A DNA stretch of 64,000 bases from an uncultured Verrucomicrobiota bacterium (GTDB taxonomy: Bacteria > Verrucomicrobiota > Kiritimatiellia > JAAZAB01), in NCBI GenBank assembly GCA_964617825.1, contig CAZTWL010000006.1, positions 23,315 through 87,314 on the forward strand. The letters run 5' to 3'. The position numbers and the translations under genes are program-made. This document shows positions 8,910-55,438 of this stretch, in pieces. The first letter of the stretch is position 1; each line of letters opens with the position of its first letter. The notes under the pieces were generated by a model that searched no databases, had not been told where the DNA came from, and saw only the letters and a list, made by a program, of their open reading frames with translations.

Positions 8910-9958
8910 TTGTTGACGGCGACGCGGCGGCCGGTGCGGTGCGACTTGTAGATTGCCAGCACGATTTCCACCGTGTGCCGCGCCGAAGCGGCGGGCACGA
9001 ACGGCGGCCGGTGCGACCGAATTGCATCGACAAAATCGGCGATTTGAGCCGGATGGCCCAGGCCATAATAGTCCTTGCCGACCGCCAGGGCGGGATCCTC
9101 GTTGAGCGCCGCCATTTCAGCCTGGATGCGTTCGGCCAGCGCCTTGTCGCCAAACACAATCTTGGCCGACTTGTTATTGCGCATTTCCACCGATCCGGCC
9201 GTGCCATGAATTGACAATGTTGAATCCCAGCCGAAGTGACTCGAGCTCGTGGCCTCGATTGTTCCCAACGCGCCTGACTTGAACTGGAGTGCGGCCGTGG
9301 CCGTGTCTTCCGTCTCGATTACGCCCTGGTGCGTCAGGTTGGTGCATGTGCCGCTGACTGACGCCACGCCGCCCATGATCCAGGCCAGGGAGTCGATAAA
9401 GTGGATGGCCTGGTTGATGAGGACCGAGCCGCCCTCCATTTCCCACGTGCCGCGCCACTTGTCAGCCCGGTAATATTCGTTGGTTCGCAGACAGAACACC
9501 TGGGTGTTGGCCGTCAGGATTGTCCCGAAGGTTCCTTCGTCAACCAGCCGCTTCATATAGCGGACAACCGGTTCGAACCGATGCTGGAACACGCCCTCGA
9601 ATACCAGTTCCGGGTGTTTGGCGTGCGCCGCCAGCATGGCCTGCATCTTGGCCGATGTTGCAGACAGGGCTTTTTCGCAAAGCACATGCTTGCCGGCCTT
9701 GAGCGCCGCCACCGCAATCGGAGAGTGGGACGCATGATCGGTGCAGATCGAAATGCCGGCAACCGACTTGTCTTTTAATACCTGGCGGAAGTCCGTCGTT
9801 GTTTTGGCGATGCCATAGGTCTCGGCCGCTTTTTTGGCCTTGGCTTCCACCAGGTCGCAGGCCCAAGCCAGTTCCACGTCCGGCAGTTTGCGATAGCTTG
9901 CCAAATGACTGGGCGAGACCACGCCGCAGCCGATGATTCCAATCCTGATTTTATTCAT
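8906..9958 (-). CDS. Gfo/Idh/MocA family NAD(P)-dependent oxidoreductase
   Basis: It has an N-terminal Rossmann fold (IGIIGCG) and an EKP/EKA motif (HVLCEKALS). The 350-aa length fits the family. Confidence 0.8.
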   Translation of the reverse strand: MNKIRIGIIGCGVVSPSHLASYRKLPDVELAWACDLVEAKAKKAAETYGIAKTTTDFRQVLKDKSVAGISICTDHASHSPIAVAALKAGKHVLCEKALSATSAKMQAMLAAHAKHPELVFEGVFQHRFEPVVRYMKRLVDEGTFGTILTANTQVFCLRTNEYYRADKWRGTWEMEGGSVLINQAIHFIDSLAWIMGGVASVSGTCTNLTHQGVIETEDTATAALQFKSGALGTIEATSSSHFGWDSTLSIHGTAGSVEMRNNKSAKIVFGDKALAERIQAEMAALNEDPALAVGKDYYGLGHPAQIADFVDAIRSHRPPFVPAASARHTVEIVLAIYKSHRTGRRVAVNN

Positions 9959-10075
9959 ATTTTCATTCTTGTGGATGCCTGCAGTTATGTGCGGAATCCA
10001 AGGTTAAGCAACGCGGTTACAAATCAATGTTATGCACTTCCGCCGGCGGCGGATAAAGTCATCATCAATCAGGTC

Positions 10076-10274
10076 CACTGGCGTCCTACAGGGGGGCGCC
10101 TCGGACTGTAGACTGCAGGCCGAAGGCTGTAGGTCGGAATCGAATAAATCCAAGTTGGAAAAACTGGAACTGAGGATTTTGAAGAGCTTTTCATAATCAT
10201 CGCTTTTCTTGGTGTTTTCCTACGGTCTACGGCCCACAGCCCTCAGCCAGAGCATCCTGTGGGATGCTAATGAA
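10076..10274. repeat. MITE-like intergenic repeat, family A (about 200 bp, about 45-bp terminal inverted repeats)
   Basis: It starts with CACTGGCGTCC... and ends with ...CATCCTGTGGGATGCTAATGAA. It is nearly identical, in reverse complement, to copies at 15814-15995 and 24695-24885. Confidence 0.8.
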
Positions 10275-10317
10275 TCAGGTCATAACGTTTTTGGCGCCAA
10301 ACGTTGCCATAAGATTT

Positions 10318-11322
10318 TCAGGCAAGTGTCTTGTAAAACGCCTTCTTGTTCGCTTGGCGCTCTTTTTCCTGGGCGGCATCCAGCAGATAAAGTTGCCATT
10401 CCTCCTGGAACCGGCAGGTTTGGCCGGGGGCCAGGTCGTATACGGGGCTCGTGGGCTCCAGTTCGACCATGAGCATGTGATCTTTGAATTTCGGGTCGCT
10501 GAGCCAAACGCTGACAGGCCAGTTGGCCAGGGGATACACCCCGGGAACAATGCTGTATCGCTTCATGTAAATCAAATTATCCTGGACGTAGGCCATCCAG
10601 CCGTCCGTGCCTTTCATGATGGTTTGGCAGACGGTCCCCAGCGGTTTTACCGTCAGGATGCCATCCGCATATTGAAATTGCTCGGCCGCGGCGGCGCGGC
10701 TCGATCTCGGCGAAGTAAACAATTCGCCGTCCTTCGAGCCGATGAATGCCCAGCCTTCCGGCCATTGCGCATCGGCGGTTACCGGAATGTCCAGGTTGCA
10801 TGGTCCGACTGTCCAGGTCCGATCCCAAATGCTCACTTTGTTTCTATGTTTTGACCGGTTCTGCACGGTTTGGGCAATGACGACCTTGCCGGTAGCGGGA
10901 TCGATCTCAATATCGCGCACAATTTGGAGGCCGGTTGTGGGGCCGACGGGACTGACCGCGGTCAGGTGATTCGGCGATTTGAGCTCCACGGTATATTCGC
11001 CGATCCATAAACATGGTTCCTTGACGCTGATATTTTCGCCGCCTTTTTCGTCCAACAGGTCGAATTGGCTGCCTCCGGGCATGAAAAAGCCCTTGGCGCG
11101 CAAAGTGGCGCCCCACAAGGCCGGATCCTGCCAGAAGATATTACGCCCGATGGGACCATATTCCATGATCCGCGCGCCGACATCTGCCACGACCACGATC
11201 TGCATGGATGGCGTTTGAAAGCAATAAACGTTTGACCAGCCTTTATAATCGATGCGTGTCCAGCCGTTCTGCATGTTTTCTCCAGTGGTTATTGTGTAGT
11301 TGCTTCTGTTTAGTTGTTCCAT
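10318..11322 (-). CDS. hypothetical protein (no recognisable domain)
   Basis: The six-frame ORF is 355 aa. The most likely start is at 11322 (MEQLNRS...), exactly at the terminus of the adjacent repeat. Coding-like codon usage is the only support. Confidence 0.45.
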   Translation of the reverse strand: MEQLNRSNYTITTGENMQNGWTRIDYKGWSNVYCFQTPSMQIVVVADVGARIMEYGPIGRNIFWQDPALWGATLRAKGFFMPGGSQFDLLDEKGGENISVKEPCLWIGEYTVELKSPNHLTAVSPVGPTTGLQIVRDIEIDPATGKVVIAQTVQNRSKHRNKVSIWDRTWTVGPCNLDIPVTADAQWPEGWAFIGSKDGELFTSPRSSRAAAAEQFQYADGILTVKPLGTVCQTIMKGTDGWMAYVQDNLIYMKRYSIVPGVYPLANWPVSVWLSDPKFKDHMLMVELEPTSPVYDLAPGQTCRFQEEWQLYLLDAAQEKERQANKKAFYKTLA

Positions 11323-11503
11323 TGGCGTCCCATAGGGCCGCCGAAGGGCTGAAGACTGCAGGCTGTAGTCCGTAGGTTCGAACACGCAAAATGCAGATCC
11401 ATAAAACCGAAACTATGGTTTTTGCATCTGGCTGATGATTGCCCGTTTTCCTACAGTCCACGGTCCACAGTCTACGTTCTGAGCATCCTATGGGATGCTC
11501 ATG
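11320..11503. repeat. MITE-like intergenic repeat, family B
   Basis: CATTGGCGTCCCATAGGGCCGCC...GAGCATCCTATGGGATGCTCATG. This copy is closely related to those at 37075-37270 and 38941-39128. Its termini are shared with family A. Confidence 0.8.
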
Positions 11504-11738
11504 TTGTTGTCCCTTTAATACCTGAAAATCAGATGAGTTTGTGGATTTCAGAATTCGAAGTCAATTATTATGTGGCCTTCCCGGGATAGGCGGCGGCCTT
11601 TCGGGATGGCGGATGGAGAAACGTGAGATGACATGTTCGTGATGACGAACGTGGCGAGGTGGTTGGACATTGCCGGGGATAAACGTAATACAAAATCCGA
11701 CGCTAAACCCGAAGGAGCCTATTCTGTGTAATCGGCTT

Positions 11739-13595
11739 TCAAAGCGGGATTTTGGGAGAGAAAAATATCCGCCAGTAACGGCCGGAGCGATTCCGGTTAT
11801 ACTCGAACAGACGCCAGACGAACGAAAAGTGCCTGGCATCCGTGGCGCTTGAATACATGAACAACGGCTGGAATTCGAAGTTGGTCGCATCGCCCTGGCG
11901 CTGATACTGAACCAGCCGCCACAAGAGCCGCCAGTCGGTCCCTTGCGCATCGCATTGATTGTATAGCAGGGGAAACAGCAGCTTTTTGTCGTTCCACTGC
12001 CAATAAAGGGGAAAGACGTGAAAATAATCCTGACCCCACCATACCGGGCCGACGCCCTTATTCCCGTCGACATTCCAAGCCAGGGGCAAAATCAGATTGT
12101 TGTTGGTCTTCCAGTGCCAGTAGAGCGGAAACACGTTAAGATAATCCTGGCCCCACCAGACTGGACCAATGCCCCGGTTGCCATGCACCGTCCAGGCCAG
12201 GGGCAGGAAAATGCTATTCTGATTCCAATGCCAGTAGAGCGGGAAGACGTGGCAATAATCCTTACCCCAGCAAACAGGCAAGACCCCTTTGTTATCGTTG
12301 ATGTTCCAAGCCAGGGGGACGAGCAGGCGGTTATCGCCCCATTGCCAATAGAACGGGAAGACATCGAAATAATCGTCGCCCCACCAGACCGGGCCGACCC
12401 CTTTATGATCATTGATGTTCCAGGCCAGGGGCAATAGCAGGCGGTTATCGCCCCACTGCCAGTAGAGCGGGAAGACATCGAAATAATCATCACCCCACCA
12501 GACCGGACCAATGCCCTTGTTATTGTCGATCTTCCAGGCCAGGGGCAATATAAGATGATTGTCGTCCCAGTGCCAGTAAACCGGGAAAATGTCGAAATAA
12601 TCCCGGCCCCACCAGACCGGGCCGATGCCCCGGTTATCGCGCACAGCCCAGGCGGCCGGGAATAAAATCGTATTATTGTTCCAATGCCAATATACCGGGA
12701 ATACATGGAAGTAATTGCGTCCCCACCAAACCGGGCCAACGGCCGCATTCGCATTGACCTTCCAGCCCAAGGGCAAAAGCCACCAATTCTTTCCGTGTTG
12801 CCAGTAGAACGGTACGACATGAAAATAATCTTTTCCCCAGCAGACTGGGCCAATGCCGTAATTTCCGTTGACTGTCCAGGCCAGCGGAGCCAGGATCAGA
12901 TTATTGTCCCAGTGCCAATAAACCGGAAAGATATCGAAGTAATTATCGCCCCAGAAGATGGGGCCGGCAATATTGTTGCCGCCTTCGAGCCATACCAGGG
13001 GTACCACATAAAAGTAGTTTTGGCCCCATAAAACTGGCCCAATGCCTTTATCGCCATTGAAATCCCAGGCCAGGGGCAATAGCAGGCGATTTTGACGCCA
13101 CTGCCAATAAAGGGGAAAAACGTGGAAATAATCCTGACCCCACCATACCGGGCCGACGCCTTGATTGCCGTTAATGTTCCAGGCGGCCGGAATGACCAGC
13201 CAATTTGCATCCCAATGCCAGAATAGCGGCGGCAGGCAGGCGTAATTATTGCCCCAGAAAACCAAACCGACGCCGTACGATGTGCCCACCTTGCCGCCGA
13301 TGGGAATAATTATGTAATTCTCGTTCCAGTGCCAGTAAAGGGGTATGAAGTGGAAATAATTTGTTCCCCAGAAAACGGGAACGATGTTGCCGGAAACCGC
13401 GCCCGTGGCGGTCTTCCGGCAGGCGGCCGCGCTGAATAGTATTTCACGGTCATACGAGCCGTCGGCCTGAACGGAGGAGTAGTAAAGCGGCCAAAGGGGG
13501 ATCGTGGCGGCCTGGTTCTCTGTTGCTGCGCCGGCCATGGCCATGAGACTCAGCCAGGAGGCAACCCAAGCGCAGGCAAAGCGACGTCTTAACAT
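11739..13595 (-). CDS. secreted tryptophan-rich tandem-repeat protein (about 13 copies of a 44-aa repeat GxGPVWWGxDYFxVFPLYWxWxxNxLLLPLAWNxNxNK)
   Basis: The probable start is at 13595 (MLRRRFACAWVASWLSLMAMAGAA, a signal peptide); the ORF extends to 13631. The repeats are near-perfect, with a DNA periodicity of about 132 bp. I do not recognise the family. Confidence 0.6.
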   Translation of the reverse strand: MLRRRFACAWVASWLSLMAMAGAATENQAATIPLWPLYYSSVQADGSYDREILFSAAACRKTATGAVSGNIVPVFWGTNYFHFIPLYWHWNENYIIIPIGGKVGTSYGVGLVFWGNNYACLPPLFWHWDANWLVIPAAWNINGNQGVGPVWWGQDYFHVFPLYWQWRQNRLLLPLAWDFNGDKGIGPVLWGQNYFYVVPLVWLEGGNNIAGPIFWGDNYFDIFPVYWHWDNNLILAPLAWTVNGNYGIGPVCWGKDYFHVVPFYWQHGKNWWLLPLGWKVNANAAVGPVWWGRNYFHVFPVYWHWNNNTILFPAAWAVRDNRGIGPVWWGRDYFDIFPVYWHWDDNHLILPLAWKIDNNKGIGPVWWGDDYFDVFPLYWQWGDNRLLLPLAWNINDHKGVGPVWWGDDYFDVFPFYWQWGDNRLLVPLAWNINDNKGVLPVCWGKDYCHVFPLYWHWNQNSIFLPLAWTVHGNRGIGPVWWGQDYLNVFPLYWHWKTNNNLILPLAWNVDGNKGVGPVWWGQDYFHVFPLYWQWNDKKLLFPLLYNQCDAQGTDWRLLWRLVQYQRQGDATNFEFQPLFMYSSATDARHFSFVWRLFEYNRNRSGRYWRIFFSPKIPL

Positions 13596-13646
13596 TATCT
13601 TGTCCAGTTTGAGCGGAGAATGCGACCGCAATGTGCAATGCGGCGC

Positions 13647-15821
13647 TCAACGTTTGATTGCGGGCTTCTTGGTGACGGTTTTTTGCTGCTCGATCAGGTT
13701 CATATAGGTCCGGTAGCGCAAGACGATCTGGCGCACGTAGTTGATCGGTTCCTCGCCGCGGACGAAGCCGCATTTTGCCCGGCGGGCGTATTGCGGCTTG
13801 GAAAGCAGACGCATGGCGTCCTCCACGTTGCCGAACCAGATATTCGGGTTGCGGCCCATTTGGCGGGCCAGGATGCGCGCATCCAGCACGTGGCCGGCGC
13901 CGGCGTTGTAAGAAGCCAGCGCGAAAAATACGCGGTTGCTGGCATCCAACTCCTGCGGCACGCGGTCCTGCATGACGTTCATGTATTTTACCCCGGCATG
14001 AATGCTGGTGGGCGGGTCCTTCAAATTGCGAAAGCCCATTTCTTTTGCCGTGCTCGGCAAAACCTGCATCAGTCCGCGCGCGCCGGATGGCGAGACCACG
14101 TTCGGATCGAACCGGCTTTCCTGGAACATCTGCGCCACGATCAGGCGCCAGTCGAAATTATACATGTCCGCGAACTTGCGGACCAGCGGGTCATATGGGG
14201 AAATACTGCCATCCGGATAAAGGCGCGCCTGTTCCTGCACGGCTTTCCGGATTTTAGACGGGCTGCGGAAGTAATAGTTATAAGCGATGTTGTAAGCGGT
14301 GCCGCGGTATTCTTTTTTCCAGAAGGCATTGATGGCCTGGAGCAATTGCTTATCCTTGGCGCGGACGACCCAGCCTTCCGGCTGGGGGGTCCCAATGGTC
14401 AGAACCGCCTTAATCCCGTCGAGCCAGCCCAGTGCCAGGGCTAATACTTCGTCATCCACCACCGTCAGGTCGATGGTTCCGTCGGCCACCCATTCGAGCA
14501 TATCGTCAGGTTGGGCGCCGGCCGGCGATGCCCGGCGCTTGACCTTGATGCCCTGGCTTTGCAGGTTGCCCAGCAGGGTCCAGGGATACGAGGAACGCGC
14601 CGCCATGATTTCGCGCCCGGCCAGGTCCTGGATGGTTTTGATGCGGCGCTCGGTCGTGCGGGCGACAACCGTTTCGGCCGCATCATTATACGGCACCGAA
14701 AATTCGACGCCCTGGCTCCGGCGTTCGTCGGTAACGGTCAGGAAGGCGGCAATGAAGTCGCCGTGTCCGGCTAAAAGCATGGGGATCAAAGCATCGTAAT
14801 CGGGCGCCACAACCACTTCCAGTTGCAGGTTGTTTTGTTTGGCGAACCGGCTGGCCATTTCGTATTCGAATCCGCGAAGTTCGCCTTTCCAGAGAAAATA
14901 GGTGGCGGCCGTATTGACCGTGAGCATGCGCAGAAGCTTGCGTTTCTTGATTTGCGGCCAGTCCTCCCGGTAGGCGGCGGCCGAGCGCGCGGCTATCGGC
15001 GTTTGCTTTAGATAACTGTTGAGCGAGGCCAGCAACTGCTTATTCCCCGGGCGCGCACCCCACACCAGGTTGCGGTCAATCCCCAGATCGAGCACGCGTT
15101 TGAAGTCGGAGCGATATTGCCGCACAATGTTCAGCGTAATGCTGTCGGTCAGGACCAGATCAAGCTTGCCGGCAGCGAGCCGGTCCAGCATGGCATCGTC
15201 CGAAAGCGTTTCCGGCAGAACCTGCGTACGGATTTCCGGGTAACGTCGATGCAATGCCTGGGCGGTTTCGCATTGGGCCGTATCCTTCTGCACCGCGAGC
15301 GTATGCCCTTTTAAGTCGGCAATCTGCTTCAGCGCGGGGGAACTGAGGCGCCCGGCAATAATTTCACGATAAGAAAAAAGCGGGGCTGAAAAGGCGATCT
15401 TCTTTTTCAGGGTCTCCGTGGGGGTCATGTAGCTGGCGATCAGGTCGCCTTTGCCGGCCAGCAGGGCGGCGGTCAGGTCGGCGCGGGTTTCAACGAAGAC
15501 CGCTGCCGGGCGTACGCCGATGGCGGCGCAGAATCCGATGGCCAGGTCCACTTCCCGATTGGGCGGGTCTCCGGCGCGGGGGAGATATTGCTCCGCCTGT
15601 TGTAAAACGAGAAACCGCAGGCATCCGCGTTTCTGGATGGCGGCCAGGTCGCCGGTTTCGATGTAGTCCGTGGCCGGGGCCGCGCTCTCCTCGGCGGATG
15701 GCGTGGTTTCCGGTATCGACGCGGCCGGCTCAGGCGCCTCCGGTTGCTTGCCGCAGCCGGTTGCCAGGAGCAGGAGCGCAACACCAAGCGCGATGGTTTT
15801 GTTGATCCAGTTCATTAGCAT
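13647..15821 (-). CDS. mltF: membrane-bound lytic murein transglycosylase F-like (2x SBP_bac_3 domains + C-terminal SLT domain), lipoprotein
   Basis: Signal peptide with lipobox (LLLLATGCGK). Two periplasmic solute-binding-like domains are present. A C-terminal lytic transglycosylase motif (ESRFDPNVVSPSGARGLMQV, AYNAG) is present. The start codon lies inside a repeat terminus. Confidence 0.8.
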   Translation of the reverse strand: MLMNWINKTIALGVALLLLATGCGKQPEAPEPAASIPETTPSAEESAAPATDYIETGDLAAIQKRGCLRFLVLQQAEQYLPRAGDPPNREVDLAIGFCAAIGVRPAAVFVETRADLTAALLAGKGDLIASYMTPTETLKKKIAFSAPLFSYREIIAGRLSSPALKQIADLKGHTLAVQKDTAQCETAQALHRRYPEIRTQVLPETLSDDAMLDRLAAGKLDLVLTDSITLNIVRQYRSDFKRVLDLGIDRNLVWGARPGNKQLLASLNSYLKQTPIAARSAAAYREDWPQIKKRKLLRMLTVNTAATYFLWKGELRGFEYEMASRFAKQNNLQLEVVVAPDYDALIPMLLAGHGDFIAAFLTVTDERRSQGVEFSVPYNDAAETVVARTTERRIKTIQDLAGREIMAARSSYPWTLLGNLQSQGIKVKRRASPAGAQPDDMLEWVADGTIDLTVVDDEVLALALGWLDGIKAVLTIGTPQPEGWVVRAKDKQLLQAINAFWKKEYRGTAYNIAYNYYFRSPSKIRKAVQEQARLYPDGSISPYDPLVRKFADMYNFDWRLIVAQMFQESRFDPNVVSPSGARGLMQVLPSTAKEMGFRNLKDPPTSIHAGVKYMNVMQDRVPQELDASNRVFFALASYNAGAGHVLDARILARQMGRNPNIWFGNVEDAMRLLSKPQYARRAKCGFVRGEEPINYVRQIVLRYRTYMNLIEQQKTVTKKPAIKR

Positions 15822-17825: not shown

Positions 17826-18638
17826 TCAAACATAAAGTTCGCGCAGCATATCGGCGGTGTCGGGGTCCAATTGATCGGCGCGGCGCACCTCGTTGAATTG
17901 CTCCAGCAAATCCTCCGCATGCAGGCGTTTTTTGGCGGCGGCATCGATATCGCGGATGATCCGGCCCTGGTGCATCATGATCAGGCGGTCGCCCAGGTTG
18001 ACCGCCTGGTGCATGGAATGGGTAACCATCAGGGTCGTCAGCTGTTCGCCGGCCACGACGCCCCGGGTCAGGCGGATGACCTGGTCGGCTGTTTTCGGGT
18101 CCAGCGCCGCGGTATGCTCGTCCAGCAAAAGGAGCTGGGGCTTGTGCCAGGTGGCCATGAGGAGCGTCAGGGCCTGGCGCTGGCCGCCGGAAAGCGTCCC
18201 GATTTCGTTATCCAGCCGGTCCTCGAGGCCCATGTCCAGGGCGGCGATCCGCTCGCGGAACGCCTGGCGCAAGCGCCGCGAAAGCGCCCAGCCCAGTCCG
18301 TGGATTTGTCCGCGCCGCGTGGCCAGCGCCAGGTTTTCGGCAATCGTCATGTGCGGGGCTGTGCCGCTGAACGGATTCTGAAACACGCGCCCGATGAGTT
18401 TGGCCCGGCGATATTCCGGCCAGCGCGTGACGTTCCGGCCGGCCAGTTCGATTTTGCCGGCATCCGGCAGGAACCCGCCGGCCACCGCGGTCAGCAGCGT
18501 GGATTTTCCCGACCCGTTGGAGCCGATCACGATGACAAAAGAGCCCGCCTTAATATGCAGGTCCACGCCCCGCAGCGCCCGGACCTCGTCGGGCGACCCG
18601 GTGTTGAACGTTTTCTGTAATCCCCGGATGTCAAGCAT
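17826..18638 (-). CDS. ABC transporter ATP-binding protein
   Basis: Walker A (GSNGSGKST), signature (LSGGQRQ) and Walker B (LLLDE) motifs are all present. Confidence 0.85.
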   Translation of the reverse strand: MLDIRGLQKTFNTGSPDEVRALRGVDLHIKAGSFVIVIGSNGSGKSTLLTAVAGGFLPDAGKIELAGRNVTRWPEYRRAKLIGRVFQNPFSGTAPHMTIAENLALATRRGQIHGLGWALSRRLRQAFRERIAALDMGLEDRLDNEIGTLSGGQRQALTLLMATWHKPQLLLLDEHTAALDPKTADQVIRLTRGVVAGEQLTTLMVTHSMHQAVNLGDRLIMMHQGRIIRDIDAAAKKRLHAEDLLEQFNEVRRADQLDPDTADMLRELYV

Positions 18639-19569
18639 GGCTCGATGCCTCCTTGCGACGCTGAATTTTGGCGGTGAGCCCGGGCAGAATCAGCGCCACG
18701 AACACGAACACGGCGGTGATCAATTTCAAGTCGTTTGGATTCAGGCCCCGGCGCAAAGCGATGGCCACCATGAGGCGGAAGAGGATCGATCCCATCACCG
18801 CCCCGACGATGGTCATGGCCAGGCCGCGCGACCGGACCAGGGCTTCCCCGATGATCACGCTGGCCAGGCCCCAGACCAGCATGCCAATCCCCATCTGCAC
18901 GTCGGCAAATCCATGGTATTGAGCCAGGAGCGCGCCGGAGAGCGCAATCAGTCCGTTGGATAGTCCCAGGCCGATGACAATCATGGTGTCCGTGTTGGTG
19001 CCCAGGGCGCGAATCATCTGCGGGTTATCGCCCGTGGCCCGCATGGCCGTGCCCAGGTTCGTGCGGAAAAAAAGGTAAAGCCCGAGGCCGACGGCAAGGA
19101 CAACCAGGCCGGCCAGCGCCAGCATGGAGATATCGCCGATCGATATTTCCCAGCCGATGCAGTCAAGGCTGGTGCGCCCGCCCAGCACCCAGAGTCCGAT
19201 CGTTTCCGCCCCTTTGGCCAGGGTGGGGGCCGCGAGCAGCGGCACGTTGCTTTTACCCATGATGTGCAGGTTGATCGAGTAGAGCGCCGTCATGACCAGG
19301 ATGCCGGCCAGCAGGCCGTTGATCCGGAAGCGCGTATGCAGTATGCCCGTGACGATGCCGGAAACGGCGCCTGCCGCCGTGCCGGCCAGCGTTGCATTGA
19401 TCGGAGCGAACCCGTGAACCACCAGGATCGCGGCAACCGCAGCGCCAAGCGTGATGGAGCCGTCGGCGGTCATATCCGGGAAGTTGAAAATCCGGAAGGA
19501 AATATAAACTCCCAGGGCCAGGAGCGACATGATCAAGCCAATGGTTAAGGAAGCAATTAAAAGATTCAT
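18631..19569 (-). CDS. ABC transporter permease (BPD_transp_2 / branched-chain amino-acid-type)
   Basis: It is a polytopic membrane protein. The ORF extends to 19623, with a likely start at 19569 (MNLLIAS). It overlaps the ATPase gene by 8 nt. Confidence 0.7.
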   Translation of the reverse strand: MNLLIASLTIGLIMSLLALGVYISFRIFNFPDMTADGSITLGAAVAAILVVHGFAPINATLAGTAAGAVSGIVTGILHTRFRINGLLAGILVMTALYSINLHIMGKSNVPLLAAPTLAKGAETIGLWVLGGRTSLDCIGWEISIGDISMLALAGLVVLAVGLGLYLFFRTNLGTAMRATGDNPQMIRALGTNTDTMIVIGLGLSNGLIALSGALLAQYHGFADVQMGIGMLVWGLASVIIGEALVRSRGLAMTIVGAVMGSILFRLMVAIALRRGLNPNDLKLITAVFVFVALILPGLTAKIQRRKEASSHA

Positions 19570-19610
19570 ATAATCATACGTCCATAACGAAACGGAAACC
19601 AAAATATTTT

Positions 19611-19730
19611 GCCCGCGAAACACGCGAAAGGAACGCGAATCTGATTAATTTGAATTAGGCGGCAGAAGAAAATAAACTTTAGCTTTTTTAATCCTTATCT
19701 TTTTAGCGTCCATTCGCGTGTTTCGCGGGC
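19611..19730. repeat. perfect 18-bp inverted repeat (GCCCGCGAAACACGCGAA / TTCGCGTGTTTCGCGGGC) flanking an 84-bp AT-rich spacer
   Basis: Seen directly in the sequence, in the intergenic space between the permease gene and the STAS gene. It could form a long hairpin. Confidence 0.5.
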
Positions 19731-19736
19731 ACACAA

Positions 19737-20990
19737 CTACTTCTCAAAACTCTTCACCGGCGCCAGCCATAATGTGCCGCGGGTGAACAGGCTTTCGCCG
19801 ACTCCGCTGATTTCGCGATGGTCGCCGATCATATGCATGAGCCCCAGCAAGCGTTCTTCCTCGAATAAGGCGCTGACGGTGCTTTCCAGCGGCAAGGGCC
19901 CTTTAGGCAGAGCCTTGATGCTGAACACCGCGGCGTGAGCGTGCGCTGCCGGGTAGGGCGTTTGCCCAATTGGCCGGACAAATGGCCGTAATGCCGAATT
20001 TTCGGCGGCGGTGGCAAAGCCGACAACCAGAACCAAGGTTCGCGCAAATTCGCGCTCAGGCGTAAAGGCCAGCCAATCGCGAATGGCCGGATAGTCGAAA
20101 AGCGAGCCCGTGCCCGCAACCGGGCTGCTGCCCGCAACCGGGCCTGTACCTGTAGCCGGGGAGTGTTTCAAGGCGGCGCCGATCAGACCCGCCGATTCCG
20201 CCAGCATGACCCAGCCGATCGCGGGCGCGCCGGCAATGGAGAGGGCCGCGGTAACGATGTGCGAGAAAGTGGTGTGATCGGCATCTGCACCGGTTTCGAA
20301 GCGAACGCATTGGGCAAAGGCGCCTTCGCCCACCAGGGCATAAAGGACCTGCAGCTCCGGCACCATGGCAGCGCGGGTAACCAGATAATCCGGCGTCTTT
20401 GCGCCATCCGAAGGCAGACAGGCGGCGGCGCCGCCCGCCGCCAGAAATTCGCCGAACCGGATACGGCATTCGCCGAAACCATTGCCAAAGGCGCCCAATC
20501 CCACGGCGAGCGTTCCGCACGGAACCTTGATCCGGCGCGATTCCGATTCCGCAAACGACAGGGAACCAAGGCGCGTTGGATTGCCCACCAGCCGGCACTT
20601 GAGCTTGGCCTCCGGCGCGAGCGGGTAAATTGTGCATTTCAGGGAGCCGAATTTTTTTTCGAAGGTTTGCGGTGGAGTTGCCGGCGCCGAGTCCGCCGGC
20701 GCAACCGGCTGGTTGCCGACCACCAGGTTGATCAACCCGCTGAGTTCCAGTACCGATTGCGCTGCCGGGGATGGCGCCAGGATGCCGAACGAGCCGTTCA
20801 GCTTCCGCAGCATCTGGTGCGATTTCAGCAGGACGCGGATGCCGGCGGAACTTAAAAAAATCACCCGGCTCAGGTTCAGGCGGATATGGTACCGGCCGCC
20901 GCGAATCGCCTCTTCCACTTCTTTTTCCACCGGCCCGGCCTGGGTGGCATCCAGTCGGCCTTCAACCTGTATTTCACAAATATCGTTCAT
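19737..20990 (-). CDS. STAS-domain (anti-sigma-factor-antagonist-like) protein with about 330-aa C-terminal domain of unknown function
   Basis: The likely start is at 20990 (MNDICEIQVEG...). The N-terminal roughly 100 aa match the SpoIIAA/STAS fold pattern (a LNLSRVIFLSSAGIRVLL... helix). The rest is unassigned. Confidence 0.55.
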   Translation of the reverse strand: MNDICEIQVEGRLDATQAGPVEKEVEEAIRGGRYHIRLNLSRVIFLSSAGIRVLLKSHQMLRKLNGSFGILAPSPAAQSVLELSGLINLVVGNQPVAPADSAPATPPQTFEKKFGSLKCTIYPLAPEAKLKCRLVGNPTRLGSLSFAESESRRIKVPCGTLAVGLGAFGNGFGECRIRFGEFLAAGGAAACLPSDGAKTPDYLVTRAAMVPELQVLYALVGEGAFAQCVRFETGADADHTTFSHIVTAALSIAGAPAIGWVMLAESAGLIGAALKHSPATGTGPVAGSSPVAGTGSLFDYPAIRDWLAFTPEREFARTLVLVVGFATAAENSALRPFVRPIGQTPYPAAHAHAAVFSIKALPKGPLPLESTVSALFEEERLLGLMHMIGDHREISGVGESLFTRGTLWLAPVKSFEK

Positions 20991-21000
20991 ATGTCTTCCG

Positions 21001-23994
21001 TTATCGGGTGCTGCCGCGTACGCGCGCCGGCGCATGGCCGATGACTTCATCCGCCCGATCCAGCAGCGCTTGCGGGATAGTCAGTCCGCAGGCGGCGGCA
21101 TTATCCAAGTTAATCACCAGCTGCGTTTTGCTGACCAGCTGAATGGGAATATGCGCCGGCGATTCGCCCTGCAGGATGCGCGCAGCGAGCCGCGCCGTAT
21201 CGCGCCCGGACTGTTCATAGTCCCGCGCGACGGCCACCACGGCGCCGCCGTTGCGGGCCTGGTTGGCGGTAAACCCGAACAGCGGCATCTTGGTTTGGCG
21301 CACGACGCGGGTGATGCCCGCAAACGAAGCGTCAATAATATTGCCGACAACCTGGCAGAACCCGTCAACATTCTGGCTGGCGAGCGTCAGGGCCGCCTCC
21401 GAAATCTCCGCACTCGTGGTCACGGGTACAGCCAGCAGGTCGATATTCACTTTCCGCAGGGCGGCGGCCATGGCGTCTTTGTTGTAAATGCAGCTGTCTT
21501 CGCCGGAGGCGAAGAGCGTACCCATGCGCCGGGCGCCCGGCAGGCATTCCCGGATGACGCCGCCCATGGTTGCATAATCGCTCATCGTGCAGATGCCGGT
21601 GATGTTGGGCGCATGTTCTTCGAACGAAGAGCCGATCCCGGCCAGCATGGGGTTGGCCACGACGGAAAAAACGATCGGGATGTTTTTTATGCGCTGGGCG
21701 GCAGCCTGCAAAGTCGGCGTGGAGGTCAGCAAGATCAAATCGGCCTTGTCGCTTCTGGCGGCCTCCACCATGGCGACAAGATTTTCCATGGCGCCCTGGG
21801 CGTTGGCGACCTTGATCTCGAAGTCGCGTCCGCGCATCAATCCCAGCTTGGGAAATTCGTCCCGCAGGCCGCGTTCGAACTCCTCGACAAGCGAGGATTC
21901 GGCGTAATGCAGAAGATGGATTTTCCATTTGCGCGCGGGTGCGGCCGCCATGACGGTCGCGGCCGCGATGGCGGCTGAGGTTGGCGCGACCACGGAAATC
22001 GGGATGCCGGCGGTCGACGCTCGATTCGCGAGCAGGCTGGCGGGGATTTCGATTCCGAGCCGGAGGGCTTCCTCCTGATTGATGACGATGGCTTGAGCCG
22101 ATACGTTGGTCATCGGAATCGCGGCCGGGCTCTCGCCGCCCAGCACGCGGGCCAGCAGCGGAGCCGCGCCGCGCCCGCTTTCATAATAGCCGACGCCGAT
22201 GCCCGCAAGGGCTTTGTCGGCCCGGAGCGGATCGTCGGGAAACAGAGGCATCCGGGCTTTGCGGCAAGCCATGACCAAGGCATCGAAGCCTTGGTAAACC
22301 GTGTTGTCGCCGGGAATATAAACGGCTTGAATCGAGCGCCCGAGGAGCGCCTGTGCGGATTGGGCGATATCCGCCGTGGTGGTCAGGGTCACTTCCTCGA
22401 GCCGTATATTCCGCTGGCGGCACAAGTCGCGCAGGACGGTAACCACTTTGACGGAATTGGCTTCGCTGCTGTTATAGATGACGCCCAGCCCGGCCATGTT
22501 GGGAATCAAACTGCGCATGCAATCGAGAGTTTCCTTGAGCGGCGGGAACGAGCCCACGCCGGTTACGTTAGGCAGATGATCGTTCCAGGATTTACCGATG
22601 CCGGCGGAGATCGGATCGGTTACATAAGTGAAGACCACGGGCTTGTGTTTGGCTATGCCGGCGGCGGCCATGAGCACCGGCGTGGTAAAGGTGACAATCA
22701 CATCCACGTCGCTGTTGTCGAGGGTTTTGATGACCGTTGGAATCGTGGCGATTTCCGCCTGTGCGCCGAGCCGGCGTATGACCAGGTTGCGGCCTTCGAC
22801 ATAACCGAATTCGCGCAAGCCCTCGATCAGGCCACGGTCGGCGGTATCGTAGCCCTGTTCCGGGGCAAAAAAGGCGATGCCGATCCGGTACGTCCGGCCG
22901 GCTTCCGGAGGCTGGCATAGCGGCGTTTTGGGCGGCAATGCATTGGTCGCATGCGCGCCCTGGGCATCGATGACGATGGAAGCGGAGCGCATTATTTCCG
23001 CCGGGATTTTCCATGCGTCGCGCAAGTTGGCCAGGGCAAGCAGATTGACCGCCAGCTTTTGGGGCACGACATTATCGATCGGCACACTGCGCGGATCGCG
23101 CCCCTTGATGATTTCCACCGCCAGGTTGCCCGTGATCTGGCCCACTTCATAATAATTGGCGCCCAGCCCCAGCAAGGCCCCTGTTTTGGCGTGATCCGGG
23201 GCGTTGGCAAAAACGGGAATGCGCGCTTCCATGGCCGGCTTGATCACGGATCCGGCCGTCAATTCGACAACATTGTCGCCTCCGATCCAGAGGGCCTGGA
23301 CATTCTTGGCCACCAGCGATTGGGCCGCTTCCATGACCTCGACCGTGCTCTGCACGGTAGCCTCCAACAGCGTGATATCCAGTTCCCTGCAGACTTCGCG
23401 GGCCAGCGCGAGACAGGCTTCCGAACACGTTTCCGAAGCGCACCAGACCACGCCGACGCGTTTGAGTTCGGGATAGCACTGTTTGGCCAGGCGGAACACT
23501 TCCTTGACCGGCTGGAAGGTGCCGATCCCGGCCAGGTGCCCCGGCCGGATATCGGGATGCTTGCGATCCAACCCTATTCCGGACAGGTACGGATCCGTGA
23601 CCGTGCCGAACACATGACGAACCTTGCCGGCCTGGTTGGCGCCGGCCATGACTTGCATGGCCGGCGTGCTGAAAGTGACAACCATGTCGAAATCGCCGCC
23701 CGCGATGGCCTTGGCAATGGTGTTGGCGGTGGGCAGGTCGGATTCGGCATTGAAACGCTGGATCATAACCGTTTTATTCGGGATCAGGTTGTGCCTGGCA
23801 AAGGCGTCCAGGCAGCCGTTGACGCTGTCGTCCAGAATTTGACGGCTGGCGATCTGGAAGATCGCCACGCGCGGGATCTTGGCCTGGACCGCGGGCGCGG
23901 ACTTGCGGTTTTGCCGGTCGGATAGCAGCAGGATCGCCGCGGCGATGCCGATGAGCACAAAGCCAAGCGCCAAGCGTTTAAGAACGTATCCCAT
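21001..23994 (-). CDS. triple tandem ABC-transporter substrate-binding domain protein (3x ABC_sub_bind/PF04392-like)
   Basis: A 997-aa protein with a signal peptide or membrane anchor. It has three about 300-aa segments, each showing the hallmark pattern of this SBP family (IG(I/V)xxFA...G(L/I)xE..., V(V/T)FTTP...). Confidence 0.65.
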   Translation of the reverse strand: MGYVLKRLALGFVLIGIAAAILLLSDRQNRKSAPAVQAKIPRVAIFQIASRQILDDSVNGCLDAFARHNLIPNKTVMIQRFNAESDLPTANTIAKAIAGGDFDMVVTFSTPAMQVMAGANQAGKVRHVFGTVTDPYLSGIGLDRKHPDIRPGHLAGIGTFQPVKEVFRLAKQCYPELKRVGVVWCASETCSEACLALAREVCRELDITLLEATVQSTVEVMEAAQSLVAKNVQALWIGGDNVVELTAGSVIKPAMEARIPVFANAPDHAKTGALLGLGANYYEVGQITGNLAVEIIKGRDPRSVPIDNVVPQKLAVNLLALANLRDAWKIPAEIMRSASIVIDAQGAHATNALPPKTPLCQPPEAGRTYRIGIAFFAPEQGYDTADRGLIEGLREFGYVEGRNLVIRRLGAQAEIATIPTVIKTLDNSDVDVIVTFTTPVLMAAAGIAKHKPVVFTYVTDPISAGIGKSWNDHLPNVTGVGSFPPLKETLDCMRSLIPNMAGLGVIYNSSEANSVKVVTVLRDLCRQRNIRLEEVTLTTTADIAQSAQALLGRSIQAVYIPGDNTVYQGFDALVMACRKARMPLFPDDPLRADKALAGIGVGYYESGRGAAPLLARVLGGESPAAIPMTNVSAQAIVINQEEALRLGIEIPASLLANRASTAGIPISVVAPTSAAIAAATVMAAAPARKWKIHLLHYAESSLVEEFERGLRDEFPKLGLMRGRDFEIKVANAQGAMENLVAMVEAARSDKADLILLTSTPTLQAAAQRIKNIPIVFSVVANPMLAGIGSSFEEHAPNITGICTMSDYATMGGVIRECLPGARRMGTLFASGEDSCIYNKDAMAAALRKVNIDLLAVPVTTSAEISEAALTLASQNVDGFCQVVGNIIDASFAGITRVVRQTKMPLFGFTANQARNGGAVVAVARDYEQSGRDTARLAARILQGESPAHIPIQLVSKTQLVINLDNAAACGLTIPQALLDRADEVIGHAPARVRGSTR

Positions 23995-24025: not shown

Positions 24026-24649
24026 CTATATGGCGTGCGCCAGCTTGCGCAAGCCGAAGGCCAGAACGATCATGCTGATGGCCATCACAACGGCAATGAC
24101 GCCGACGACTTGCATCAACAACACGGCCGAAACGAGCGGCTCGGAAATCAGGACGGCGGCAAAGCCGAGCGCGACGATGCCTTCCACGAGCAGCAGCCAT
24201 TTGTGCGCGCCTGTTTTCCACAGGCGGATGGCCGTTGCGAGGCGCATAATGCCGGCGATCAGGACAAAGCAGGCCATCAGGTAGATTATCAAGGTTTGGG
24301 TGACGATCGCGCTCAGCAATGGACTGCTGAAAATGGCAACGCCGGCCAGAAGATAACAAATGCCGCCCAGCAGCGCCAGCCAGCGGGATCGGCCCATATG
24401 CCCCGCGATGGCGCCAACGATCAGCAGGATGCCGTCCAGTATGAAGAAAAATCCCATGACTTGGACAAGGCCGAGGATCAAGCCGGCCGGCTGGAAAAAG
24501 GCAAACAGACCGAGAATGGCGGCCAGAATGCCGCGCAAAAGCATGACCCACCAGGCGCCATGCAGAATCTCCTTCAAAACTCCGCCGCCGGTTATTTCGA
24601 TCATAATGGCTTGCCTTTCGGTATGGTTGTTTTCAGCGCCATCAGTCAT
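24026..24649 (-). CDS. HdeD-family (DUF308) acid-resistance-type membrane protein
   Basis: It has six predicted TM helices with the repeated GILLIVGAIA / GIVALGFAAVL pattern typical of HdeD. Confidence 0.65.
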   Translation of the reverse strand: MTDGAENNHTERQAIMIEITGGGVLKEILHGAWWVMLLRGILAAILGLFAFFQPAGLILGLVQVMGFFFILDGILLIVGAIAGHMGRSRWLALLGGICYLLAGVAIFSSPLLSAIVTQTLIIYLMACFVLIAGIMRLATAIRLWKTGAHKWLLLVEGIVALGFAAVLISEPLVSAVLLMQVVGVIAVVMAISMIVLAFGLRKLAHAI

Positions 24650-43891: not shown

Positions 43892-44282
43892 TATCAATAT
43901 TATATTTGTCATCCGGAGGCCAGCATTACGCCGTTCTGGGAAGAATCCCGGCGCGACCAGTTCAACCGGCTTTCCGGCCCCTGGAACTGTGAGGGCCGCC
44001 AGCCCGAACCTGCTATGGAGTCGAGCGGCAGCCGCGCCAGACGCTTGGTATGACCATGCCGCCGGGGTGATCATCGTGCGGAAAACCTGTCGCCTGCCGG
44101 TTCCAAACCGGCGGCGGATGGGCCGGACCGCCGCCGAGAACGTGCCGTCACGGCCTGCAGTAGCGGTTCCTGTTGGAATTTGTCGGGTTTGCGCTAGCAT
44201 TCATGGACGCGACTTGCTACATTGACCGCCAACGTGTCTTGAACTGGTCGGATCGGCAAAGAGTCTGCCGGATCAGGCTATC

Positions 44283-44477
44283 GTGCAAGAACAAGAACGC
44301 TGGCTCTCGGTCGAGGAGATTGCCGTCCACCTAGGCGTCAATCGGGACACGATTTACAAGTGGATTGATCGGTGTCAGATGCCCGCCCACAAGCTCGGTA
44401 AGCTTTGGAAATTCAAGGCGACCGAGGTTGACGAGTGGATTCGAGAGGGCAAAGCAGGCGAAGGGGAACGCAAGTGA
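44283..44477 (+). CDS. small excisionase/AlpA-family HTH DNA-binding protein
   Basis: 64 aa. An LSVEEIAVHLGVNRDTIYKWI helix-turn-helix is present. This is the first gene of the lower-GC island. Confidence 0.6.
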   Translation: MQEQERWLSVEEIAVHLGVNRDTIYKWIDRCQMPAHKLGKLWKFKATEVDEWIREGKAGEGERK

Positions 44478-44511
44478 ACATGACCTCGATCATGGGAATG
44501 GGACGGACGTA

Positions 44512-47500
44512 ATGCCCCAGATATTCGACAACATCGAGAAGCACCTTCTGACGGCCCTCTCCGAAGCGATGGGACTCTCGAAGAGGTCTGATTTCTGCGT
44601 CGGCTACTTCAACCTTCGCGGATGGCGGCAGATTGATTCCTTCGTCGAGAAATGGCCTGGTGGGGACGGCAACTGTTGCCGGTTAATGGTCGGCATGCAG
44701 ACCCTTCCGGCCGAGGATCTCCACGCTGCCCTCAGTCTCGCCACAACACCAGCCCGCATGGACAACGCCACGGCGCTCCGTCTGAAGAAGGCGCTGGCGG
44801 AGGAGTTCCGTAACCAGCTCTGTATCGGCGCGCCTACCGAAGATGACGAACGTGGCCTCCGCCGATTGGCCGCCCAGATCAAAGCGCAGAAGGTCGTCGT
44901 CAAACTCTTCGTCAAGCACCCGCTGCATGCCAAGCTCTACCTCCTTTTTCGCCCAGACCCGATCAACCCCATCGTCAGTTATCTCGGCAGCAGCAATCTC
45001 ACCCTGGCGGGCCTGTCCAAACAGGGCGAGTTGAACGTGGACGTGCTCGACCATGATGCCACCCAGAAACTCGCAAGGTGGTTTGAAGACCGATGGAACG
45101 ATCACTGGTGCCTCGATATCTCGAAGGAGCTGGTCGAGATCATCGAAACGAGCTGGGCGCGAGAGACGCCCATCCCGCCGTATCACATCTACCTGAAGAT
45201 CGCCTATTGCCTCTCCCAAGAGGCCCGCGCTGGCCTCACCGAGTTCCGCATCCCCAAGGAGTTCGGGAACAAGCTCTTTGATTTCCAGAAAGCTGCGGTC
45301 AAGATCGCCGCTCATCATCTGAACAAGCGTCACGGCGTTATGATCGGCGACGTGGTCGGGCTGGGCAAGACCATCATGGCAACCGCCGTGGCCCGCATCT
45401 TCGAAGATGACCACGGTCTGGAGACCCTGATCATCTGCCCGAAGAACCTCGTTCGCATGTGGGAGGACTACAAGGAGCAGTACCGGCTGCATGCCAGGGT
45501 TCTCTCCATCACCCGGGCCATTGCCGAACTGCCCGAGTGTCGCCGTTACCGTCTCGTCGTGGTGGACGAGAGTCACAACCTCCGCAACCGCGAGGGCAAG
45601 CGCTACCACGCCATCCGCGACTACATAGAGAAGAACGAAAGCCGTGTTATCCTGCTGTCGGCCACGCCTTACAACAAGAGCTACCTCGACCTGGCCAGCC
45701 AACTCCGACTCTTCGTTGCCGAAGACCGTGACCTCGGCATCCGCCCGGAGCGCTTGCTTCAGGAAGTTGGCGAGACCGAGTTCATCCGACAGCACCAGTG
45801 CGCGGTCCGTTCGCTCGCTGCTTTCGAGCACAGCGAACACCCGGACGACTGGCGTGAACTCATGCGACTCTACCTTGTCCGTCGCACGCGCAGTTTCATT
45901 CAGGACAACTATGCGCAGTATGACCCCCAGCGGAAACAGAAGTTCCTGACCTTTGAAGACGGACGCCGTTCCTATTTCCCGACGCGCGTTCCCAAGACGC
46001 TCAAGTTCCGCGTGGACGAGTGCGACAAGAACGATCAGTACGGCCGCCTCTACTGCGAGGACGTGGTCAAGATCATAAACAAACTCGATCTGCCGCGCTA
46101 TGGTCTGGGTAACTACGTCGCGCCGTCGTCGGACAAGCCCCCATCACAACCCGAGGCCAAACAGATCGAGGACCTATCCCGCGCCGGCAAACGCCTCATG
46201 GGGTTCTGTCGGACGGGCCTTTTCAAGCGTCTGGAGAGTAGCGGTGCGGTCTTCCTGCAGTCCATCGAGCGCCATATCCTACGCAACTATGTCTACATAC
46301 ATGCCATCGAGAACGGTTTTCCGGTCCCCATCGGCACGCAGGATGTGGAAATGCTCGACTCGCGCGTGTACGACGAAGATGCCGACGACGTAAACGCCCG
46401 TCTCGATATTGAGGAGGACGCGACCGAGGAAGCGGCCAACGCCTGCCAGCAACCGCTGCGCACCCCAGAGCAATTCCGTGCCAAAGCCAAAGAGGTCTAT
46501 GAGTTCTACGACAAACACGCCAAGCGCCGCTTCAAGTGGCTGCGGTCCGGCCTGTTCATCGCCGAACTGCGTGATGACCTCGAAAACGATGCCAAAAGCC
46601 TGCTGAAAATTCTGAAGAGCGCCGGGCAGTGGGAACCAGCGGCCGACACAAAACTGCAGACCCTTGCCGCCACCCTCAAGAAGACGCACCCCGGCGACAA
46701 GGTTATAATCTTTACCCAGTTCGCCGACACCGCCCGCTACCTGGAGCGCCAACTTTCTGCCATGAGCGTGGACCGTATCGCGGGTGCGACCGGCGATTCC
46801 AGCGACCCGACCCTTATCGCCTGGCGGTTCAGCCCTGTGAGCAATGGCAAGTGCGCCAGTGTCGCTCCTCTCGATGAACTTCGCGTCCTCGTTGCTACCG
46901 ATGTCCTCAGCGAAGGCCAGAACCTCCAGGATTGTCACATCGTCGTCAACTACGACCTGCCCTGGGCCATCATTCGGCTCATTCAGCGTGCGGGCCGGGT
47001 GGACCGCATCGGTCAGGAGGCGGACACCATCGTCTGTTACTCGTTCCTGCCCGCAGAGGGCGTGGAGAAGATCATCCGCCTCCGCAGTCGGGTTCGCCAG
47101 CGGCTTCAACAGAACCAAGAGGTCGTCGGGGCTGACGAACTCTTCTTCGAAGACCAGCGCGACGAAGCCAAGGCACTCAACGATCTCTACACCGAGAAGG
47201 CCGGTATCCTTGACGGCGAGGCCGACAACGAAGTGGACCTTTCGTCCTACGCTTACCAAATATGGAAGAACGCCCTTGATGCCAATCCAGAACTGGAGAA
47301 GATCGTCCCCGAACTACCGCCGGTGGTGTACAGCTCGCGACCCTGGTCCCCAACTTCCGAAAAACCCGAGGGTGTCCTGGTCTACCTCAAGACAGCTGAC
47401 GGCAACGATGCCCTGGCCTGGATGAACAAAGCTGGTGAGAGCGTCACAGAATCCCAGTACGCTATCCTGCGCGCGGCCGAGTGCAAACCGGAAACGCCGC

Positions 47501-47895: not shown

Positions 47896-47931
47896 TAATT
47901 AGACAATGCAGAAACAACAAGGAGGCTTCGT

Positions 47932-48270: not shown

Positions 48271-48312
48271 TGCTTTGGCAATATAAGCTTTCAGGATTTC
48301 TTCGAAATCGGA

Positions 48313-52412: not shown

Positions 52413-52461
52413 CCGAACGCAGGTATCCTCACTGAAAATAGGAAAGCGGACTAGCCAACGC

Positions 52462-54758: not shown

Positions 54759-54891
54759 ATCAGGATTCCTTTATGCTTTTAGCATGGTGTTACCTCCGAT
54801 TCAATTACAGCTTAACGGAGTTGATCTGTCTTCTTCAGAATACGAAGATTTTATCCGGATATCCTCCTGGCCTTGATTATTATTTCTTAAA

Positions 54892-55434: not shown

Positions 55435-55438
55435 GATG

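Follow-up and report, generated by a model that had tools for sequence, protein, structure and literature searches.

A widespread ABC importer cassette with a STAS protein as its predicted fourth component

Only a handful of systems are known in which separate accessory proteins control ABC importers post-translationally. A 64-kb stretch of DNA from an uncultured Verrucomicrobiota bacterium of the Kiritimatiellia (contig CAZTWL010000006.1 of assembly GCA_964617825.1; called the window here, with all coordinates given as window positions) carries a set of importer genes, all on the minus strand, in which a gene for a STAS-domain protein follows that for the substrate-binding protein (SBP) and precedes those for the permease and the ATPase. 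We call this protein STAS-X, after its STAS domain and a second, C-terminal domain (X). The locus raises the question of whether STAS-X belongs to the importer and, if so, what it does there. Judged by gene content and order in related genomes, the four genes form a conserved and widespread cassette for a four-component ABC importer, with STAS-X as its fixed fourth component. This importer type is widespread but undescribed: a literature search returned no paper on the cassette and none that pairs the PF04392 family, to which the SBP belongs, with a STAS domain.

Gene content and distribution of the cassette

Transcription on the minus strand runs from the SBP gene through STAS-X and a palindromic repeat to the permease and the ATPase. 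The SBP gene (21001-23994) encodes 997 aa with three tandem PF04392 domains and an N-terminal hydrophobic segment, and STAS-X begins 10 nt past its stop codon. The longest open reading frame (ORF) of STAS-X covers 19737-21050, with M21 as the likely start, which gives a protein of 417 aa (19737-20990) that is 100% identical to P0001. The permease, of 312 aa when read from the ATG at 19567-19569 (18631-19569), matches BPD_transp_2 (PF02653, E 5.6e-24); a longer, GTG-started ORF that enters the repeat arm probably does not have the true start. The permease stop codon is overlapped by the start of the ATPase gene (ATGCTTGA), whose 270-aa product (17826-18638) matches ABC_tran (PF00005, E 1.2e-27) and has its Walker A (at 39), LSGGQ (at 149), Walker B (at 169) and H-loop (at 205) motifs intact. 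By gene content the cassette is apparently a complete and competent importer, and the locus is identical on an independent Logan contig from run SRR8925806. An earlier interpretation made from the letters alone (the sequence-only reading) had named both permease and ATPase genes, and they are present just outside the segment that it described.

These profile matches assign the transporter core to the PF04392 / BPD_transp_2 / ABC family. The cassette shares its SBP family, its BPD_transp_2 permease and its single ATPase gene with TrpXYZ-type importers (PF04392 / COG2984-COG4120-COG1101), which include the streptococcal tryptophan transporter and C. difficile CD0873. It differs from them in its fused binding domains, three here and one to five elsewhere, which are of three types in a fixed order, and in the addition of the cytoplasmic STAS-X, which is unreported in characterised TrpXYZ-type systems.

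The sequence-only reading had held that a STAS protein is not expected in operons of this SBP family and had proposed a look at phylogenetic distribution. In a scan of one genome per GTDB species, STAS-X is encoded in 280 species, and the collected loci (80 kept and five found otherwise, about 85 in all) show the pairing to be a recurring one. Wherever the contig is long enough, and with few exceptions, SBP, STAS-X, permease and ATPase genes follow one another in this order on one strand; they mostly abut or overlap, often with overlapping start and stop codons. The hosts belong to the Kiritimatiellae, Verrucomicrobiota, Lentisphaerae, Planctomycetota, Acidobacteriota, Binatia, Desulfobacterota, Myxococcota, Hydrogenedentes and Methylococcus, about ten phyla, and most of the roughly 280 species are uncultured Acidobacteriota and members of the Planctomycetes-Verrucomicrobia-Chlamydiae (PVC) group. 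Three exceptions stand out. The Kiritimatiellae relative L006 has a 3.9-kb insertion of opposite-strand, glycosidase-like genes between STAS-X and the permease (9284-13173), locus L209 has no permease or ATPase gene in its downstream flank (10050-13735), and in L073 the SBP gene comes after the ATPase gene. Both L006 and L209 keep the SBP/STAS-X pair intact, though one product is extracytoplasmic and the other cytoplasmic.

Two ORFs that resembled natural fusions of STAS-X to transporter parts were rejected, the 'STAS-X-permease' of L064 being a run of N and the 'SBP-STAS-X' of L028 a read-through of overlapping frames.

The triple SBP was itself in need of scrutiny, given that the sequence-only reading had named a frameshift-joined assembly artefact as the finding that would overturn it. 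Its description of a 997-aa protein with three tandem PF04392 domains is borne out. Pfam finds PF04392 in three separate stretches (E 1.2e-142), and the nearest PDB relatives are 3lkv (2.7e-43), 3lft and 6hni. The NCBIfam TrpX-like equivalog gives 512 bits against a cut-off of 390, a score that is summed over three divergent domains. Domain 1 (22960-23880) is 30% identical to domain 2 (22000-22908) and 23% to domain 3 (21025-21918), and all pairwise identities lie within 23-30%. Because the domains have diverged this far, and because the identical 997-aa protein is recorded in the NCBI assembly (on a 127-kb contig), the Logan contig carries the same locus and homologues of about 970-1000 aa are numerous (the longest, with 1692 aa, has five domains), we regard the triple SBP as genuine and an artefact as ruled out. 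The low identities also argue that the three domains are old duplications.

When every binding domain in the 85 loci was scored against the three domains of the window, the domains fell into three conserved, ancient types, which in all typed loci occur in the order 1, then 2, then 3. Type-1 orthologues of other phyla, for example, score 240-550 bits against domain 1 and 120-160 bits against domain 2. The commonest layout is type 2 alone, in 37 loci of Terriglobia; domain 2 is also the one with the nearest solved PF04392 structures. Order 1-3 occurs in 19 loci, 1-2 in four, 1-2-3 in three and in the window, 2-3 in two and 1-2-3-3 in one (L006), and what remains are lone type-1 or type-3 domains whose ORFs were called separately, the layouts 3-3 and 2-3-3, and fragments. 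Across the family a cassette has one to five binding domains. The ligands of solved PF04392 proteins are L-Trp, L-Tyr and L-Phe only (PMC10443332). In GlnPQ, several covalently linked binding domains of differing specificity likewise serve one translocator (PMC8025302). The GlnPQ domains belong to another family, and two of them are joined to the permease itself, whereas the three to five PF04392 domains of the cassette make up a polypeptide of their own that starts with a hydrophobic segment. A modular SBP that preserves the order of its three types would be a clean system for learning how several binding domains share one translocator.

The hydrophobic segment of the SBP (residues 7-25, 23920-23976) could be a signal peptide or an anchor, and reading the N-terminal sequence revealed no lipobox cysteine. 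Between domains 2 and 3 lies an Ala-rich, hydrophobic linker (21919-21999, residues ~666-692; IPISVVAPTSAAIAAATVMAAAPA), which topology predictors could mistake for a membrane helix.

STAS-X and the genes beside it

STAS-X has no signal peptide and is by sequence a cytoplasmic protein. A protein search returned more than 560 homologues, mostly of about 400-435 aa among the best 120 listed, and the closest named relatives (77%) come from metagenome-assembled genomes of Kiritimatiellae and Verrucomicrobia. Its STAS assignment withstood the profile searches, with matches to PF01740 (E 2.8e-11) and PF13466 (E 3.9e-10) at residues ~22-110 of the longest ORF and to SpoIIAA in a PDB profile search (1.6e-17); against TIGR00377 it reaches 52.2 bits, narrowly below the curated anti-sigma-antagonist threshold of 53.45. 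An AF2 model built with 39 homologues has a pLDDT of 89.6 and a pTM of 0.86, with low confidence only in the inter-domain linker (residues 94-103) and one loop. In Foldseek searches the modelled STAS domain (aa 1-93, 20712-20990) is of the SpoIIAA/RsbV type (E ~1e-5, 25-27% identity) and farther from MlaB (E ~1e-2), and the YchM STAS domain bound to ACP (3ny7) is also among the fold matches of STAS-X. Ser48 (20847-20849) is invariant in the 39-sequence alignment. It stands at the N-terminus of helix 2 and is aligned with Ser58, the residue that is phosphorylated in SpoIIAA of B. subtilis.

The remainder of the protein, the X domain of about 310 aa (aa 110-417, 19740-20663), has no Pfam or NCBIfam match in the window protein (residues ~110-417) and no Pfam match at E <= 10 in 26 family members. 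Its top fold matches are alpha-acetolactate decarboxylase (ALDC, PF03306) and human PTD012/C11orf54. The model thus gives X an ALDC-like fold. X is new to Pfam and NCBIfam, yet the fold itself is not new; the sequence-only reading had spoken of a novel C-terminal domain of 330 aa, of which the lack of a known family stands, while the length and the novelty of the fold do not. Relative to ALDC and PTD012, X is about 80 residues larger and fused to STAS, and there is no detectable sequence similarity; by sequence, STAS-X falls outside the ALDC family. The literature search likewise gave no paper that joins a STAS domain with acetolactate decarboxylase.

Six residues are invariant in both X alignments (A1 and A2): His350 (19941-19943), His352 (19935-19937), His386 (19833-19835), Glu181, Asp201 and Glu265. 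Arg339 is conserved as well, without exception in A2 and to at least 90% in A1. In the model, His350-x-His352 lies on a late strand and His386, 33 residues after it, on the next strand. By eye, the local motifs of X (VVGxA...GHFHAAAF...LHLLxD) resemble that of ALDC (GYHLHF...GGHVFDY), in which the zinc ligands are a His-x-His pair, a third His ten residues on (HxH-x10-H) and a Glu (PMC9090609). From this resemblance of fold and motif only, we infer a metal site shared with ALDC. A search of the full protein library with the C-terminal 313 residues alone returned 758 clusters (50% identity) that contain X. Of the best 150, almost all are of about 400-490 aa and have X at the C-terminus, the STAS+X layout, and from these lengths and the C-terminal match we read X as essentially restricted to a position behind a STAS domain. 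X may represent a new family of ligand-binding or enzyme domains beyond Pfam and NCBIfam.

Genes of the partner-switching type recur at the borders of the cassette. Four additional loci were reached by way of SBP homologues, and two of them have an RsbW-like kinase gene (HATPase_c_2) and a small STAS gene adjoining the cassette, and one of the two (L208) has a SpoIIE phosphatase gene as well. In a targeted search of the 85 loci, which counted a gene as adjacent when it lay inside the cassette or no more than 250 nt from either end, 13 loci had RsbW-like genes at or inside the cassette, 12 of them on the same strand, and two further RsbW-like genes sit behind an intervening small STAS gene. This corresponds to 0.124 RsbW-like genes per kb beside the cassette and 0.0099 per kb farther out, a 12-fold difference. 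SpoIIE phosphatase genes adjoin the cassette in several loci, small STAS genes are recurrent too, and several of the loci with a kinase have no STAS protein near it apart from STAS-X. Pfam confirms the kinase and phosphatase assignments, including GAF-SpoIIE-HATPase_c_2 fusions and dCache-HAMP-SpoIIE proteins. The 15 cassette-linked kinases have a mean identity of 43.5% and look like one orthologous group, and their pairwise identities correlate with those of STAS-X (r = 0.58).

Other genes were seen in the same neighbourhoods. A Phenol_MetA_deg gene of outer-membrane type lies downstream of the cassette or its kinase in L070 (11395-13044), L034 (12029-13500) and L002 (14023-14949), and L070 and L034 also have a DUF4154/YfiR-like gene there; these neighbours hint at a link to aromatic-compound uptake or c-di-GMP signalling. 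In L071 (3462-6331) the cassette-linked kinase is adjoined by a Peripla_BP_5 binding protein and, after this, a HAMP-MCP signalling protein, both checked with Pfam, L028 (2057-4929) has ORFs of matching size and order beside its kinase, and L016 (11599-12597) has a Peripla_BP_5 gene beside its kinase.

Possible roles of STAS-X

We give about an even chance to the view that STAS-X serves the importer as a ligand sensor, a subunit with a regulatory or signalling role. The three divergent PF04392 domains, chained together and facing the periplasm, would capture solutes, and the one permease and one ATPase, each presumably a homodimer, would translocate them. Either the imported solute or one of its products would be bound at the metal site of the X domain, which may also convert the solute, and the STAS domain would relay the state of X through partner binding. 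Candidate partners are the transporter ATPase, as in MlaB with MlaF, and/or an RsbW-type serine kinase acting on Ser48. Transport could thereby be gated by the cell or reported to it, functionally like PhoU in the Pst system; the physical interactions, ligand binding and metal binding in this model are all steps that we infer. In PstSCAB-PhoU, a metal-binding cytoplasmic accessory protein of an ABC importer operon couples the state of the transporter to signalling. The analogy is one of function only, without homology, and PhoU is all-helical and talks to a histidine kinase. The sequence-only reading had suggested a sensing or regulatory role rather than simple nutrient uptake. Such a role is plausible, given the SpoIIAA/RsbV-type STAS domain, Ser48 and the RsbW-like and SpoIIE neighbours, but the contrast with nutrient uptake finds no support, since a complete importer is encoded.

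Two known systems supply the parts of this proposal. MlaB docks on the helical subdomain of MlaF, the complex depends on it for stability, and Thr52 of MlaB sits at the centre of the MlaF interface in a structurally equivalent regulatory position; a 2020 survey of the PDB showed no other STAS protein together with an ABC domain (PMC7367683). MlaFEDB and the cassette both have a STAS protein in an ABC transporter operon, with a Ser or Thr at the N-terminus of helix 2. They differ in that the cassette is an SBP-dependent importer with a BPD_transp_2 permease and no MlaE, MlaD or MCE protein, and in that MlaB is a bare STAS domain of 97 aa, to which STAS-X adds the 310-aa ALDC-like domain. Because MlaE and MCE partners are missing, we place STAS-X outside the MlaB system. 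With the modules RsbV/SpoIIAA - RsbW/SpoIIAB - RsbU/SpoIIE, STAS-X has in common the STAS fold and the phospho-serine, and kinase, PP2C phosphatase and small STAS genes lie beside the cassette in many relatives; unlike the STAS proteins of those modules, it has a large extra domain and sits in a transporter operon.

A more specific form of the proposal, which we hold to be possible but on the unlikely side, is a transporter-coupled partner-switching sensor. STAS-X would read a solute at its new zinc-site domain, ligand and Ser48 phosphorylation would toggle it between the ATPase and a dedicated RsbW-like kinase, and the three domain types would feed different signals into one translocator. If true, ABC import would be wired directly to a phospho-partner-switch output, a PhoU-like logic built from STAS parts. 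More generally, the cassette would make it possible to test whether the import of nutrients is tied to signalling by partner switching. As a STAS-containing transporter family, the second after MlaB and far more widespread, it would be a new model for the gating or reporting of uptake.

Several observations weigh against a regulatory or signalling role of STAS-X. No RsbW/SpoIIAB-type kinase or PP2C phosphatase gene is found in the 64-kb window, and no kinase or phosphatase gene adjoins the cassette in the window or in the single-domain Terriglobia loci; partner switching therefore cannot lie at the heart of the system, unless its partners have their genes in other parts of the genome. Beside the eight cassette-linked kinases whose neighbouring ORFs were scanned, there was no sigma factor gene. 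The correlation between kinase and STAS-X identities is compatible with co-inheritance but no proof of it, because both follow the species phylogeny and this alone could yield the correlation. As for the metal site, comparison of X with an ALDC alignment by hhalign gives a probability of 0.1, and the PDB profile search with X gives nothing but a chance match (E 0.89). Because these searches and Pfam detect nothing, and because the third His is 33 and not 10 residues away, equivalence to the ALDC site is a matter of fold and motif. The numerous invariant polar residues of X would also fit an enzyme as well as a sensor.

STAS-X might instead work chiefly in metabolism, as a Zn-dependent enzyme of the ALDC/PTD012 type (a decarboxylase or hydrolase) that converts the solute at the transporter exit, with the STAS domain only tethering it there in a transport metabolon or oligomerising it, and no signalling. 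ALDC and PTD012 are, after all, the top fold matches, and the His triad with its invariant or near-invariant Glu, Asp and Arg residues resembles an active site. The gene layout, often with overlapping codons, implies strict co-transcription with the transporter. STAS domains of SLC26/SulP carriers are docking sites for enzymes, in keeping with the YchM STAS-ACP complex among the fold matches. We nevertheless consider this unlikely, given that it leaves unexplained the invariant phospho-serine position, the 12-fold enrichment of RsbW-like genes and the repeated presence of SpoIIE and small STAS genes at the edges of the cassette, and that no conserved downstream catabolic genes are found around the cassette in the collected loci. 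More improbable still is that STAS-X merely stabilises the ATPase on the permease as a structural subunit like MlaB, with X as an accessory or oligomerisation module that has no ligand-dependent role. MlaB is the sole precedent of a STAS protein in an ABC transporter and is needed for the stability of its complex (PMC7367683), but the STAS domain of STAS-X is clearly nearer to SpoIIAA/RsbV than to MlaB, and an inert role is hard to credit for a domain of 310 aa with a conserved metal-site motif. In addition, L006 and L209 keep SBP and STAS-X together with permease and ATPase displaced; because the pair persists without adjacent permease and ATPase genes, the tightest link of STAS-X does not appear to be with the ATPase.

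The palindromic repeat and the surrounding genes

Between STAS-X and the permease gene lies a strand-less palindromic element of 122 bp (19610-19731), which the sequence-only reading had described as a perfect 18-bp inverted repeat around an 84-bp AT-rich loop and had listed among the parts of the operon. The element and its loop (84 nt between the perfect arms, 33% GC) are as described, while the arms (19610-19632 and 19709-19731) are perfect over 19 bp, or 23 bp long with one mismatch. Its place exactly between the two halves of the operon, its AT-rich loop and its very stable predicted RNA fold (dG -58.2 kcal/mol, z = -4.9) would suit an integral regulator that controls permease and ATPase separately, acting as attenuator, terminator, operator pair or internal promoter region. 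We think this very improbable. At the orthologous junction the palindrome is absent from L008, where stop and start codons overlap, from L007, which has an unrelated 110-nt spacer, and from L006 with its 3.9-kb insertion, and its sequence was not found in any other cassette locus. The exact 19-mer, in contrast, is found between all kinds of genes in soil, lake and polar-site metagenomes, on at least 120 unrelated contigs (loci L086-L205). A scan of the element revealed no sigma-70-like promoter and no terminator, and Rfam holds no family for it, the only match being a sub-threshold one to a miRNA (22 vs 130 bits). An intrinsic terminator was rejected in particular, the loop being 76-84 nt instead of the usual 3-8 nt with a U-run. 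From its absence at orthologous junctions and its presence on so many contigs elsewhere, we conclude that the palindrome is, by sequence comparison, a lineage-specific insertion of a dispersed REP/MITE-like repeat, unrelated to the importer.

The repeat apparently belongs to a large, undescribed intergenic family. The window has one copy; among the contigs we found 63 complete units of 64-349 nt (median 105), whose arms face each other in every case and which often have a T-run before and an A-run after the unit. Their termini of about 30 nt share the pattern TGCCCGCGAAACACGCGAAA(nn)ACGCGAAA, with ACGCGAAA units about 10 nt apart. Units lie in very short intergenic gaps, often between co-directional genes: 20 of the 29 scorable ones do not overlap a long ORF, and the gaps to neighbouring ORFs are mostly 2-60 nt. 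Short palindromic units with conserved inverted termini, short intergenic gaps often within operons and stable RNA hairpins are likewise features of REP/BIME, ERIC and Correia-type repeats, but the sequence is unrelated to these described families, with no Rfam match and no paper that contains it in a literature search. A REP lies between malE and malF, that is, after a binding-protein gene, which the position of the palindrome recalls. Here too, the RNA hairpin probably would do no more than uncouple the operon halves or set their relative expression.

No target-site duplication (direct-repeat flanks) was seen at the repeat units and no transposase or RAYT gene with them. Distant arm pairs were considered as the ends of a parent transposon for a MITE and rejected, as they enclose a restriction-modification methylase or an AbiEii gene and no transposase. 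One such pair (L135, 692-4732) encloses a Type IIG/Eco57I-like methylase gene and another (L198, 12020-13592) an AbiEii toxin gene, so the repeats may sometimes bracket defence or toxin-antitoxin genes. On L170, three direct arm copies lie on one strand (minus-strand offsets 29, 134 and 253, the complement of about 2688-2929), 105 and 119 nt apart, in tandem and unlike the usual facing pairs.

The neighbouring genes of the window are, by Pfam and NCBIfam, unrelated to the cassette. Downstream of it come genes for a metallo-beta-lactamase-fold (MBL-fold) hydrolase and RsmE, and other window genes encode MltF-like, GFO/IDH/MocA oxidoreductase and glycosidase-like proteins. The MltF-like gene (13647-15821), on the cassette strand downstream of the RsmE gene, encodes 724 aa with two SBP_bac_3 domains and an SLT lytic transglycosylase domain. 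Upstream, a gene for a DUF308/HdeD-like membrane protein (24026-24649, same strand) ends 31 nt before the SBP gene, and a gene of this kind likewise precedes the cassette in L006 (3213-3842). Because the position is shared by the window and L006, it may be co-transcribed with the cassette, in the Kiritimatiellae lineage only. Farther along, at ~44000-64000, the cumulative GC skew is maximal near 44 kb and declines after it, and the GC content of ~0.58-0.62 falls to 0.47-0.55 past 48 kb, which could be a switch of strand bias or a region of different origin.

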